64,000 bases of DNA from the IMG/VR virus record IMGVR_UViG_3300042371_001161, positions 32,001-96,000 of that record; one strand, written 5' to 3'. Every line of letters starts with the position of its first letter. Positions within the stretch are counted from its first letter, which is position 1. Position numbers and translations under genes: made by a program. Positions 5,901 to 64,000 of this stretch are shown here, in pieces. The notes under the pieces were generated by a model, which worked only from the letters and a program-made list of their open reading frames with translations, had not been told where the DNA came from and made no database searches. Source of the DNA: a virus.

Positions 5901-7817
5901 AATTCTGCTATCTATTTCTTTGCGTTTTACAATTCTGCCATCTATTCCGCTAAGAGCAACCTGATGTCGACTACCAGCTTTTGCGCTTCCAAAAAACTTC
6001 GAGTTCGGGTCGTTTGAAATAGCACGGAATTTTGAACCAGTGACCGACCCAGGCATGATTACTGGACTCGTCGCCGGATATCCGCTAGAAAGGGCCCCTC
6101 CGCCGCCCCCACCACGACCTGAGGCCAGCGATGACGTTGGGCCAGCCGGACCAAGATTTTTGCCACCAATAGAAACATTTTGAGCGTTAACGCTCATGGT
6201 CTTGACAGTTTGAACCCCTGGCATTAAACGGCCCTTTACGCCGCTCATTTTTTTACCTATAATCGAGAATGCCAGCAATGGTGCAAGGGCCGAAGCTAGT
6301 CCTCCGCCAGCCCCACCACTAAACATTTTGGAAATCATATTGAAGACGCTTGTTAGTCCAGATACTAAGTCACTCAAAAAGGGGAGCATATCCATGAACA
6401 TCTTTTTAAGATTCATGAAGAATTTTGATAAAGAATCGATGAGCTCCCCAACACGTTCGCCGAATTCTGCAACTTCATTTTTGTTTTCAACAAGAAGGTC
6501 CTTGAATAAGGTCAGGTTTCCGGCACCTCGTTTAATTGCCTCCCACACTGGAGTAAAAGCTTTATAAAGCACCTTTGCGCCATCTATGAGTGGGCGAGTT
6601 TGCTCAAGGACCATATCCCAACCACGCTTGAATTTAGAGAACCAATCTCCAATTCTGTCGAACATGCCTAACGCGCCAGGGAGGTATTCGCGAATCATTT
6701 TCACGAGCCAATTAGATGCTTTTTCTATTCCGCCAGCAAAGCCGTCGATTATGCCCGTCGCCCCAAAACTATATGAAATAGCGCCCATTATGCGCTGCAA
6801 GTCTCTGCGTATTGTCCCGAATACCCTCTCAAATGAAGCCTTGAGTGGCTCCAAGAACTGGTCGCCAAAATCAGCAAACTCGCCACGCAATCGACTAAAG
6901 TAGCCCTTCATCTGGGAGATTAAAGTACCGTTTACGGCTTCAAACTGACCAGCGACACCGCCTTTGTCCGCCAACTGCCCGGACATCAGAAGTTCTTTAA
7001 ATTGTTCCTTGGTTTTTATGGTTGTCCCTTTTAGGGCTTTTTCCATTTCTGGGCCAAGTTTTTTAGCTTCTGTTATTACGTCAGAAATACTCTTTTTACT
7101 GTTAGAAAGATTTTCGATAACAATAGATACTTGTTCTAGGCCCTTTGCGGGGTCTTGGCCCGCTGAACCAAAGTCCATCAAAGCCTTGATTGATGCACCG
7201 CTTTTATTTATTTGTGCGGTATTCATCGACTTGGACATGGTTCCGTAAGCCTTGTTGAGTGCTTCGACTCCGAGAGTCGCCAGACTTGCGTCGCTCTGTA
7301 GGTTCCGCATGCCCATTCTTGTCTGATTCATCGCTGAACCAAATGCAGGGGCTCCCTTGCCTCTGTAGGCATAAATGGCGGCCTGCTGCTCCCTGATAGC
7401 GGCGCTCGCTGCCGATATTGCGACGACTACCCCCGCCGCACCAGCAGAAAGCATTTGCATCGCCCCCCTATATGCTTTGACAAGTAATTGCCCAGCTGCA
7501 AATAGTGCGTGGACTCCTATCATCGCAGCTCCAAGGGCTGCCATTTCTATAACGACACCCTTGATAGCCATACCGAGGAACTTAGTGAGCCCTTTTCCTG
7601 CCATTTTGGCGCCAGCATCTATGGCGTCGAAACTGCGTTTCCAGCCTTTTGTGGTATTTGCTAGTTTACTACCCGATTGTTGAGCGAGAGCTTCGCCCCT
7701 GCCGCTGGAAAGTTTTTTTACTCTTTTTTCTAGTAATGAAAGCTGAGCTATTGCTTTAGTGAGCTCCCTAGTTTGGGCCTCAAACTTAATTTTAATATCA
7801 ACTATTTCATCAGCCAT
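2958..7817 (-). CDS. Tape measure protein with C-terminal M15-like Zn peptidase motif
   Basis: 1619 aa, Ala/Gly-rich and helical, with AGAAGG hydrophobic tracts. Follows the tail chaperone gene. C-terminal SDHATGSAYD...HLHV motif. Confidence 0.9.
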   Translation of the reverse strand: MADEIVDIKIKFEAQTRELTKAIAQLSLLEKRVKKLSSGRGEALAQQSGSKLANTTKGWKRSFDAIDAGAKMAGKGLTKFLGMAIKGVVIEMAALGAAMIGVHALFAAGQLLVKAYRGAMQMLSAGAAGVVVAISAASAAIREQQAAIYAYRGKGAPAFGSAMNQTRMGMRNLQSDASLATLGVEALNKAYGTMSKSMNTAQINKSGASIKALMDFGSAGQDPAKGLEQVSIVIENLSNSKKSISDVITEAKKLGPEMEKALKGTTIKTKEQFKELLMSGQLADKGGVAGQFEAVNGTLISQMKGYFSRLRGEFADFGDQFLEPLKASFERVFGTIRRDLQRIMGAISYSFGATGIIDGFAGGIEKASNWLVKMIREYLPGALGMFDRIGDWFSKFKRGWDMVLEQTRPLIDGAKVLYKAFTPVWEAIKRGAGNLTLFKDLLVENKNEVAEFGERVGELIDSLSKFFMNLKKMFMDMLPFLSDLVSGLTSVFNMISKMFSGGAGGGLASALAPLLAFSIIGKKMSGVKGRLMPGVQTVKTMSVNAQNVSIGGKNLGPAGPTSSLASGRGGGGGGALSSGYPATSPVIMPGSVTGSKFRAISNDPNSKFFGSAKAGSRHQVALSGIDGRIVKRKEIDSRIGRGVVYAATGARARDPYADRGQITNPDGTTKPVNPNVNLPLSAKFRATQSLNARSMDELRQIATQKGIVGTQIGGVMGGGQQGPGAPRMSDTFADRKLLVKAIMAKKGSTAEFKNDGRTVSIGQGLANSAKRGALKAVGVADRGQYLARRGFGAIRGGFAQMNSGAWDAEKGEYKDLGTARGALLARRGESDKQGGLKKLGGRLSYRRDMNRISRNDSKFGGGVKKFNNSMGAKMGVGMGLGLASQYAPEEMQGAIALGGMVAQVNPMLGAAVAGIGSALKATSVKAGALAGAAGGAAAGAMFGPYGAAIGAGVGLLVGGIMGAVNAGKEKLKKAKKIIDASMASFFMIDLQKAGRQFQRNAETVKGGGSLKGRDAAMVGLGTSFGKTLGQFNRDITAAIAAGGGSYESNGKTEFNDAKGILDEYFKTDSGKKLTSEERDALKARATNSIRHIMKTSDPLIEAQLSRIDKQNTERIGALSRATGKSGAELEQLAKTLGVDLYDPTIKYNDLLLKFSGSLKKTGAELNDLIADIVLSGANAFKTQREKEEATYALDSNLRQLGDIMRDPSTTADEKTTAMRAHMEPAFNQLLQVAGGDGIMAYQGFIDLFGGKNADGKIFAPGAELAGQGETFVNDPIYQASVRDMEKGAVGAASEQLRTILSSEEHGNLKIEEGVLESQLTTLLQNNPEQFLKLLGDIKDYDLTYDDKDGLRQRLLNAPKGGAGAIPTGTLGLESAYNPALGAQSALSGYGMGELGLAKENTVALDDIATAATNMGTAATGLEEAIKIFNTNMEGFFTAPLGEMPDWWRNGLVMSDDGKTLAPPDTSTPRGGAIGDTSTSKLSQTMSRHAAMNGQLTGKRTVTSSLRNYALGSPSSDHATGSAYDLVGQNLGQYSKLVHANGGFAEFHGSAANRHLHVVPGPGVGDTSVARPISSATSGGGSTNNYYSIEVNGGNSSPEAIAQMVMAKLQDRERSEKERR

Positions 7818-7882
7818 TTGGCACTCCGTGTGAGTTTTAAGTCACGTGAGTGTAAGGCTGCCAAGCTATGGGGGCTCCACCC

Positions 7883-63500: not shown

Positions 63501-64000
63501 ATACCAATGAAAAAAGGAAAGGTCGTGGAAGGCTCTGGCAAGGAATTGAAGGAATCCGTTCATGAGGCCTTGCTTGAAGTAGGCAAACTGCACAATGGGC
63601 ATCCCGAATATATTACGCCGACGCTTTTAGGCGGAGAAAGTTTTTCAGAAACGCCGAATGCCGACGACCGGGTGGGGGTGGTCGCACTGCAGGATATACC
63701 GAAAGAATACCCCGAATATGCCGAAGGTGTCGTGGGGTCGCCTCACGCAGACCACCCAAGTGTCAGGTTGGCAGAATTTGATAATTTTTATGTAAATAGC
63801 GCCTCTTCTCGCATGGCCGCCTATGACTACGGCCGATTGAGTCCTAATGCAAAATTAAGAATTTACGATAGCAATTCGGATAAGTACTCCTCAGCCAGAA
63901 TTGAAACAATTTATGAAGACAGTGGGTTTTCTTCTGGAAGAGTACAACGACGTACGCCAAAATCTGGAGCAAACCTCGCGGATGCGTTTGATGAACCAAG
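60519..64000 (+). CDS. Giant polyvalent protein (partial): two GNAT-like domains and a further unassigned enzymatic-looking domain
   Basis: Not in the ORF track. Manual translation from ATG at 60519 (MSVDNNEFHIPF...) is open to the window end (1160 codons). Contains RPKHQRRGLAAEMF...HSDALSEDGRAF and SQGHGIGSAF...GATHWPRNGFTW. Confidence 0.8.
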   Translation, partial: MSVDNNEFHIPFEETRRGVDSNTEEKAALGRLGRYLGSRATNRPTIGQRRRGRGGGRGVEIPTGGKPGTRNPTGSRRDVDGDGWADEGTKKPVWVGMGNTEPASKPKPQAQRQTAKRTETEVAKKLSSGLEQLSPLERYDYGPVVAAKKIKSKDTEYRLVIRNDFDIGIYLESDFNKARDVLVERFNKLGANPFNDKPSPLGPEDIDDRDVLRFMLDNDKTIKTMSAMQVWSPGGGSRTEVFQINTRPKHQRRGLAAEMFNTHRETFPELDLQHSDALSEDGRAFSKAVPATSNMESPDRPSSLSSGKKYQELVDAQPELTEEKLRQIDELNELLRSDLLDSADSYSEDTDVFGTGIDILNDSPERAAQRKRVHDLLREIFSGEIELEEDIIVTATNGEKINLGKTVVVDVAESFEALGWQVEIDEVSEEDIQLVQDQTFEPFLSADSTGIGLAARFQFKLTPTADAAERLTAAGVPDEMIWDEMMSVGPGTQGEVQFGRSARMLSYFPGDKPTATMQHETFFLNSESQGHGIGSAFNARNEKIYEAIGQLKIFAAGTSNTEESIGATHWPRNGFTWAGEPGKQTFLGTIAEALDDTEQNWFSPEEKSRISSLIRKNPDTGLFETDSTPENLLKFQRATELFKEKELSILYVREVSKRKTPAGALSSGRIGTVKTEPVEMMRSTEFPKLGTKLIDSGGTPDPTSSQKQYMEFPVYEIDGKKFAFGNTDLGRFQPEFNTEDIEIVPLNPYAIVGLPKTSTEGQEWALKMFHAIQAVSLLDDIEAGRVGNRKVGLVAALTYAAKRGDKPALEELERLAKIGEELLVNNRRDFVSAAKVYNEQMWDVDGTYWDDTPNMQVVLGPTRTNEYGDTVRTTRALGIDDMFLVHQTSYKPQYDDDGNIILKPTGDFIPIDPNTGEQLLDPISGKPVAMPDRDSIHMTLNHMVKGHMWRNEPTESTSVIIVPLRDVLDANPGSLDNLFVVDTFLTPKPGEGLVIPMKKGKVVEGSGKELKESVHEALLEVGKLHNGHPEYITPTLLGGESFSETPNADDRVGVVALQDIPKEYPEYAEGVVGSPHADHPSVRLAEFDNFYVNSASSRMAAYDYGRLSPNAKLRIYDSNSDKYSSARIETIYEDSGFSSGRVQRRTPKSGANLADAFDEP

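Follow-up and report, generated by a model that had tools for sequence, protein, structure and literature searches.

A short LSSG peptide recurs at module borders of giant phage proteins and the tape measure and is a candidate cleavage code

The window analysed here, a stretch of 64,000 nucleotides (nt) comprising bases 32001-96000 of the 119,748-bp IMG/VR viral contig IMGVR_UViG_3300042371_001161 (an uncultured, lake-type phage; estimated 71% complete), holds a minus-strand myovirus tail module, in which sheath, tube and chaperone genes are followed by a gene for a 1619-residue protein at the tape measure position, and three genes for giant proteins that we call polyproteins 1, 2 and 3 (G1, G2 and G3; Table 1). 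Several genes without assigned function and an HK97-fold capsid gene are present as well, and G3 is found further on. We find that these four proteins share a tetrapeptide, L[SA]SG, which occurs in the tape measure at nt 7712, 6128 and 6092 (amino acids (aa) 36, 564 and 576; minus strand), in G1 at nt 26673, 26952, 27042, 28254 and 31746 (aa 656, 749, 779, 1183 and 2347), in G2 at nt 39047, 39347, 39464 and 42686 (aa 1264, 1364, 1403 and 2477), and in the part of G3 inside the window at nt 60894, 61428 and 62511 (aa 126, 304 and 665), where FSSG is also present at nt 63927 (aa 1137). Full-length G3 (3305 aa) carries 11 L[SA]SG plus the FSSG, eight of these copies lying beyond the window. An initial annotation of this DNA had listed these 15 L[SA]SG copies and proposed that they are recognition sites of a protease, possibly an encoded zincin, that cuts packaged polyproteins; all 15 lie where it placed them, and no other window open reading frame (ORF) of at least 150 aa contains one. 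Six-frame translation of the window yields 8 further copies, all outside the ORFs of at least 150 aa that were checked. The ALTSG string that the annotation offered as a variant site at nt 45453 is present as well; relatives do not conserve it, and chance seems to account for it.

Across the whole contig, 23 of the 26 L[SA]SG copies fall in the four proteins (10,660 aa), for which residue composition predicts 0.82; LSSG alone is observed there 19 times against an expectation of 0.37, and the remaining 27,595 aa of the contig hold 3 L[SA]SG where 2.0 are expected. Shuffling residues within windows of 10 to 100 aa, our model of linker composition, gives a mean of 0.8-1.1 copies and a maximum of 7 in 2000 shuffles, so that the excess suspected from a rough composition estimate persists when the make-up of the linkers is taken into account. 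LSSG is the most frequent 4-mer of the four proteins, and the 11 other orderings of L, S, S and G occur 0-5 times each. The codons used for Leu, Ser and Gly at the motif vary among copies; selection therefore acts on the peptide, and a DNA-level repeat is ruled out.

The same peptide dominates the relatives of these proteins. A search with G1 returns giant proteins, nearly all of which open with the same protease domain, and almost every one of the 120 matches listed has LSSG, or in some lineages FSSG or LASG, as its most frequent 4-mer. Within 214 giant proteins homologous to G1 and G2 we count 1689 copies, compared to 58 expected, with a median spacing of 146 aa and the consensus [R/K/S/G]-[L/F]-S-S-G-[R/A/K]-[R/K/T]. 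Alignment of G1 with 20 homologues reveals that the motif columns are 76-100% conserved while their flanks are 28-57% conserved and full of indels, which is the behavior, LSSG kept while its surroundings diverge and change length, that the initial annotation had looked for. The Ser and Gly of three G1 sites are invariant in 23 sequences, and the copy at G1 aa 2347 is an island within a long acidic linker of variable length. We give next to no credence to the notion that the copies arise by chance or from low-complexity linker composition: the flanks are indeed somewhat richer in polar residues than average (0.71 vs 0.62), but local shuffles reach at most 7 where 23 copies are observed, other orderings of the same residues are absent or rare, and the homologues show a 29-fold enrichment. 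The shuffles, the conservation of motif against flank and the enrichment in the 214 homologues refute it.

The motif also marks where modules begin and end. BLAST comparisons among the giant proteins of five genomes show modules that shift protein and position, with homology that stops at the motif; of 171 internal homology ends, 36% are no more than 30 aa away from a copy, compared to 12% for random positions (maximum 20% in 1000 trials), in agreement with the earlier placement of copies at module edges. In the relative G003, the last cassette of G2 (aa 2481-2849) stands as a gene of its own, 337 aa long, and cassettes are distributed independently across genomes. The modules between copies are independent cassettes that move between polyproteins and genomes. 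G1 is built, in order, of an S78 protease, small cassettes, an ArdC-N domain with an MPTase, a UvrD-type helicase and a C-terminal module; G2 has a ≈1263-aa N-terminal module without a code copy, followed by cassettes bounded by its four copies. Many unrelated domains thus lie on one chain (S78, ArdC-N, MPTase and UvrD in G1, RNase_T in G3), as in the polyvalent proteins that Iyer, Burroughs, Anand, de Souza and Aravind described in 2017, for which they proposed delivery with the DNA and processing by the MPTase (PMC5512222). Pfam, at E ≤ 0.01, returns no match at all in G2 and only RNase_T (aa 2465-2756, beyond the window) in G3, with neither the ParB nor the GNAT domains of the initial annotation detected in either.

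Other lineages use other peptides at the same joints. The giant proteins of two complete relatives, G002 and G004, lack LSSG and carry [I/V/L]-[S/T]-G-x-M instead (17 and 14 copies, respectively, sub-patterns counted), while G003 has R-F-S-S-G, G005 has G-L-A-S (29 copies) and G031 has S-T-R-S (37 copies). The RNase_T cassette, which begins with a conserved PR[KE]P stretch, is bounded on both sides in five genomes by LSSG, LSSG, FSSG, [IV]TG[AS]M or ISGRMG. Of the seven genomes examined, five have the local code at aa 21-46 of the tape measure, close to the N-terminus, and G001 has it at aa 106, with no N-terminal copy found in G004; a mid-protein copy, at aa 564-853, is present in every code class. 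Each phage lineage has its own code at orthologous joints. Such a concerted switch of peptide fits the co-evolution of a protease with its sites, and we see no better explanation. An apparent exception inside the LSSG clade, L020/G035, was dismissed, as its full contig has RL[SA]SG 21 times and there is no independent loss. On the G035 contig, one uninterrupted reading frame at bases 27637-49725 (loci L188-L189) runs for 7362 codons and contains 17 RL[SA]SG and six HExxH. The polyproteins of G002 and G004 (loci L130 and L139) contain DnaJ, Zeta-toxin-like kinase, NUDIX and sigma-70 region 4/helix-turn-helix cassettes.

The 1619-residue protein matches no PHROG or Pfam family above threshold, and is assigned as tape measure by order, since it is the long gene directly after sheath, tube and chaperone, which PHROGs name; the order of the tail genes matches that of Gordonia phage Chidiebere. 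By capsid and protease, the closest cultured relatives are Gordonia and Brevibacterium phages (47% and 39% identity), and the host is therefore probably an actinobacterium. LSSG-type motifs are not enriched in Chidiebere or in Brevibacterium phage Cantare, and no G2-type module was found in the stretches examined. Actinomycetia phage DSL-LC01 matches only an 81-aa module of G1, and neither a recurrent 4-mer nor a G2-type module appears in the stretch of it examined. Metagenomes contain many members of the group, with 2704 capsid homologues at E ≤ 1e-10 among 8000 candidates scored.

Table 1. Features of the window that bear on the junction peptide (positions in window coordinates)
Feature	Position	Strand	Basis
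Tape measure protein, 1619 aa	2958..7817	minus	gene order
Tail assembly chaperone	8047-8598	minus (tail module)	PHROGs
Tube	8638-9141	minus (tail module)	PHROGs
Sheath	9158-10621	minus (tail module)	PHROGs
Large terminase subunit	20813-22126	minus	
Portal protein	22470..24581	+	PF04860, phrog_2662; directly upstream of G1; without code copy
Polyprotein 1 (G1), 2887 aa	24708..33371	+	Pfam, motif positions
Peptidase_S78 domain, G1 aa 27-170	24786..25217	+	PF04586, 45 bits
ArdC-N (aa 799-907) and MPTase-PolyVal zincin (aa 948-1071), G1	27102..27920	+	PF08401, PF18818
Polyprotein 2 (G2), 2849 aa	35258..43807	+	motif positions, cassette comparison
Zincin domain of G2 N-terminal module, aa 400-780 (putative)	36455..37597	+	invariant columns, AlphaFold2 model
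Major capsid protein, HK97 fold, 449 aa	48485..49834	+	PF05065, phrog_10
Polyprotein 3 (G3), 3305 aa	60519..64000, then 6436 nt past window	+	motif positions, Pfam

Three phage-encoded enzymes are candidates for reading the code. G1 opens with an S78 domain that is absent from the account given by the initial annotation; its match to PF04586, an HK97-type prohead protease family, compares to a cut-off of 21 bits. It is the sole S78 match on the contig, records G000-G005 and 20 further records each have one S78 gene, and here the gene adjoins the portal gene, directly downstream, as befits a single capsid-maturation protease. The domain is fused to cargo in more than 120 relatives; in G002 and G004 it stands alone, as part of a protein of ≈800 aa. 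H65 and S129, which we take to be the catalytic pair of the S78 family, are invariant in 23 sequences; a sequence search of the domain against PDB chains gives no match. Raw S78 identities hinted at incongruence with the code, but the rooted S78 tree is congruent with the code classes, with all 127 LSSG users in one clade whose sister is formed by G005, G028, G033 and G031, followed by the other classes. Inside the S78 module lies a Cys-rich module of ≈85 aa (CxxC...C...C; G1 aa 325-410, window 25680-25937, plus strand), which G002, G003 and G004 encode as a gene of its own (113-132 aa), and which is 62% identical to part of the annotated capsid maturation protease gene of DSL-LC01.

The capsid protein, of the HK97 family (PF05065) with a helical N-terminal region, has no code copy in 80 relatives of any code class, and neither the portal protein nor an acidic 580-aa protein encoded between G1 and G2 contains L[SA]SG in the window; capsid and cargo do not share one motif here as they do in T4 and phiKZ. 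At capsid aa 116-120 (48830-48844, plus strand), nearly all 80 relatives have L-x-x-G-[R/K], LNGGR in this phage and followed by NGANM, and a related K-S-G-R is present in the Cantare capsid. This stretch could be a maturation site; the AlphaFold2 model of the capsid protein has a predicted local distance difference test score (pLDDT) of 45, too poor to place such a site. Co-variation of the code with the capsid stretch before KSIG ("QLSSRE") was considered and rejected, as the [ILV][ST]GxM phages L049 and L052 keep QLTSRE.

The second candidate resides in the N-terminal 1263 residues of G2, which contain a conserved CPxGTPxANQFTD, HExxHxxQ at aa 564-571 and E..AE at aa 665-669; H564, E565, H568 and E665/E669, i.e., HExxH and a downstream Glu, are invariant in 34 sequences. 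The AlphaFold2 model of this zincin (pLDDT 81.5) is best matched by the catalytic domain of anthrax lethal factor (1yqy_A; VIA-align Z 10.5 over 182 residues, root-mean-square deviation 5.3), followed by the Pro-Pro endopeptidases PPEP-3 (Z 7.1) and PPEP-2 (Z 6.9), while Foldseek of the same model against the PDB returns nothing below E 0.1; the model is suggestive of a lethal-factor-like fold. Lethal factor and the Pro-Pro endopeptidases form a group of sequence-specific endopeptidases. The G2 N-terminal module is present in 28 of 29 related records, all 12 complete ones included, and the zincin region is barely alignable between code classes. A second zincin of G002 (locus L133) matches the Pfam lethal-factor family ATLF at 28.8 bits, against a cut-off of 27.4.

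The third candidate is the MPTase of the ArdC cassette of G1 (ArdC-N 58 bits; MPTase 135 bits, cut-off 27.5), a cassette (aa 783-1186) that itself has a code copy at either border, at aa 779 and 1183. Its HETIH is at aa 997, with H997, E998 and H1001 invariant. We find the MPTase in 23 of 26 LSSG-type records, the three without it being fragments estimated to be 30-38% complete, and in none of 17 other records, three of them complete; in G038 it is present although housed in a different protein. That a zincin is the LSSG protease, as the initial annotation had suggested, is thus upheld insofar as the MPTase co-occurs with LSSG in 23 of 23 informative records, and weakened insofar as these records form only one clade; judged from sequence, a zincin in this role is plausible. 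No LSSG occurs in the stand-alone ArdC-like genes of other phages.

Two further modules were set aside. A third zincin (G3 aa 1587-2013, HEYGHW) is found in most LSSG genomes and in G005, yet the complete LSSG genome G015 lacks it; the Cys-His-Asp module that ends G3 (aa 3171-3305), considered as a general reader, has no homologue in the LSSG genomes G001 and G003.

Taken together, the placement, conservation and lineage-specific replacement of the peptide indicate that it is very probably a cutting signal. Which enzyme reads it is where our readings diverge, and we tentatively favor, with a little less than even confidence, one in which LSSG is a junction code at the cut points of the giant proteins and of the tape measure and is read by a cargo-borne zincin. 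A short peptide in flexible linkers would mark where the giant chains and the tape measure split into separate proteins, and a phage-encoded, sequence-specific zinc protease, itself part of the cargo, would recognize it; a protease of this kind could process every ejected protein, the tape measure among them, either before assembly or after ejection. The S78 protease would then serve mainly in capsid maturation, perhaps also as a handle that brings G1 into the procapsid. From gene position, the protease fusion and the published polyvalent model, we infer that the three chains are packaged in the capsid and ejected. We prefer a zincin to S78 because the capsid lacks the code, the tape measure carries it, and the S78 domain is conserved across codes, whereas the zincin region of G2 hardly aligns between code classes; the invariant HExxH and Glu residues of the G2 zincin, its likeness to lethal factor, its near-universal presence in related records and the co-occurrence of MPTase with LSSG point the same way. 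Named singly, each zincin is a doubtful choice, the lethal-factor-like domain of G2 being an unlikely reader and the MPTase a slightly less likely one still. Several observations weigh against the zincin reading. The lethal-factor likeness rests on the Z score of 10.5, with nothing from Foldseek or Pfam, and among LSSG users, with no change of code, the G2 zincin drops to ≈30% identity. Capsid and S78 trees alike group the LSSG users into one clade, so that the correlation of MPTase with LSSG is a single evolutionary event; the sister group, which lacks MPTase, uses GLAS or GMAS, close to the RGLASG sub-code of the LSSG clade, related phages retain the whole junction system without MPTase, and two plasmid TraC-type multi-domain MPTase proteins contain no LSSG. 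The S78 domain, moreover, is fused directly to cargo, is present wherever it was looked for, and has intact catalytic residues.

These last points favor the alternative that the S78 protease of G1 reads the code and that cleavage takes place in the procapsid, after entry of the polyproteins and in the course of its maturation, on the pattern of T4 and phiKZ-like phages, an account that we consider unlikely, to about the degree that we doubt the G2 zincin. The hydrophobic-[A/S]-S codes resemble the A|S preference of the related herpesvirus assemblin, and the S78 gene's being the only one on the contig and in each related record searched, its position next to the portal gene and the agreement of its tree with the code classes all speak for this account, as do the near-cognate L-x-x-G-[R/K] kept at capsid aa 116-120 and the precedent of the SPN3US prohead protease, which cuts ejection proteins at a common motif (PMC10052503). 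However, no capsid of any class bears the code of its own lineage, the L-x-x-G-R stretch is identical across classes, and the domain is 72-85% identical across users of LSSG, STRS and [ILV][ST]GxM. The tape measure carries the code, too, and tails assemble apart from heads. Cleavage by some other enzyme, a host protease or an unrecognized phage protease, strikes us as quite improbable: G2 has no Pfam match and each genome has several further HExxH cassettes, and the tape measures of T5 and lambda are cut during tail assembly by enzymes yet to be identified, with host involvement reported for T5 (references cited in 10.1101/2022.09.20.507954), but codes differ between phages with capsids that are ≈75% identical, which a phage-borne reader fits better than a conserved host enzyme. 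Scarcely more probable is that the peptide is not cut at all and acts in docking, targeting or modification, e.g., as a serine modification site or a capsid/portal binding tag. The invariant Ser-Ser could in principle be modified; against this, the copies sit where cassettes, and in relatives genes, begin and end, replacement of a whole code at orthologous joints requires a co-evolving reader with many sites, and a binding tag is not expected 5-18 times per protein and again in the tape measure.

The zincin reading extends to a more speculative picture, which we hold to be possible, if on the unlikely side: an abundant uncultured group, probably of Actinobacteria phages, would have RNA-virus-like polyproteins and, in each lineage, a private pair of peptide and sequence-specific zinc protease; the protease would travel with the cargo and, after entry, cut the ejected polyproteins and the tape measure into dozens of effectors. 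If the pairs are indeed private, changes of code would isolate lineages, because a cassette would work in a new genome only after its joints had been recoded.

The four proteins invite comparison with several known systems. Like the polyvalent proteins of Iyer et al., the polyproteins are giant multi-domain chains with ArdC-N, MPTase, helicases and nucleases encoded among late phage genes; unlike here, that work describes no junction peptide or cleavage site and finds assemblin-like peptidases always C-terminal, (PMC5512222), whereas S78 is N-terminal in G1, the code extends to the tape measure, and the system persists in related phages that lack an MPTase. The protease systems of T4 (gp21), phiKZ (gp175) and SPN3US (gp245) likewise have many virion-carried proteins that share one short motif. 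T4-type prohead proteases belong to S77, cut after Glu and have the same motif in the capsid protein. Here, by contrast, the prohead protease is S78, the capsid is without the code, and modular polyproteins carry 5-18 sites per chain; for SPN3US, mass spectrometry has located 14 sites, spread over 9 proteins (PMC10052503). The protease family is that of HK97 gp4/gp5 (MEROPS S78), and the capsid is likewise of the HK97 family. HK97 gp4, of ≈25 kDa, stands alone, is loosely specific and carries no cargo, unlike the S78 domain here, which heads a 2887-aa chain.

RNA-virus polyproteins, with their picornavirus 3C sites or the L-x-G-G sites of coronavirus or adenovirus proteases, offer a further parallel. 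The arrangement that we propose would resemble them in having one chain, many mature proteins, a short private code, a self-encoded protease and a similar L-x-x-G outline, but this is a double-stranded DNA tailed phage whose cassettes are accessory enzymes rather than a replication core, and we find no homology to RNA-virus polyprotein proteases. The tape measures of T5 (pb2) and lambda (gpH) are cut between functional parts during tail morphogenesis, as we propose here (10.1101/2022.09.20.507954); those tape measures, unlike the one here, are not known to share a motif with head or cargo proteins, and their enzyme is yet to be identified. The Dar proteins of P1 (DarA, DarB and DdrB) are similarly large anti-restriction proteins targeted to the capsid, of which DarA and DdrB are processed, but they are products of separate genes with no repeated junction peptide, and their cleavage sites are undefined. 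Our literature search found no paper that describes the code or joins LSSG with phage and protease in this sense, and, beyond Iyer et al. 2017, nothing on polyvalent proteins with a prohead protease.

Should the peptide prove to be a cutting signal, giant "hypothetical" genes of this kind would be strings of ≈5-20 mature proteins whose borders could be read from sequence, such that the modules could be expressed and tested singly. Now that sites are defined and three candidate enzymes named, the processing of polyvalent proteins that Iyer et al. proposed in 2017 can be tested directly, and lineage-specific pairs of code and protease could supply new orthogonal sequence-specific proteases. A code common to cargo and tape measure would tie head cargo to the tail in one processing step, of which we find no description in the literature searched.

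Some neighboring features deserve mention. The 580-aa protein between G1 and G2 (33502-35244, plus strand) has an extremely acidic first 270 residues, with runs of E and D and MPxKKK-like repeats in this N-terminal part, followed by a last 300 residues that are 54-64% identical across all relatives; neither a family match nor a code copy is found in this protein, which may be a scaffold-like head protein. In the portal protein, aa 420-460 (window 23730-23860, plus strand) form a proline-rich repeat (PGMPPGMPGMPPG...) that separates the conserved core from a C-terminal extension of ≈200 aa. Collagen-like G-x-T/G-x-Q triplet arrays (GATGPTG, QGDQG), reaching ≈100 repeats among the large proteins of one genome, occur in proteins of G003, G005 and G027, e.g., G003 12235-17250; these arrays dominate k-mer counts and need to be masked when junction codes are sought. 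A 220-aa protein encoded at 47658-48320 (plus strand) holds two DUF3721 repeats, a domain that giant proteins of G002 and G004 also match weakly, under the Pfam cut-off, in their N-terminal part.

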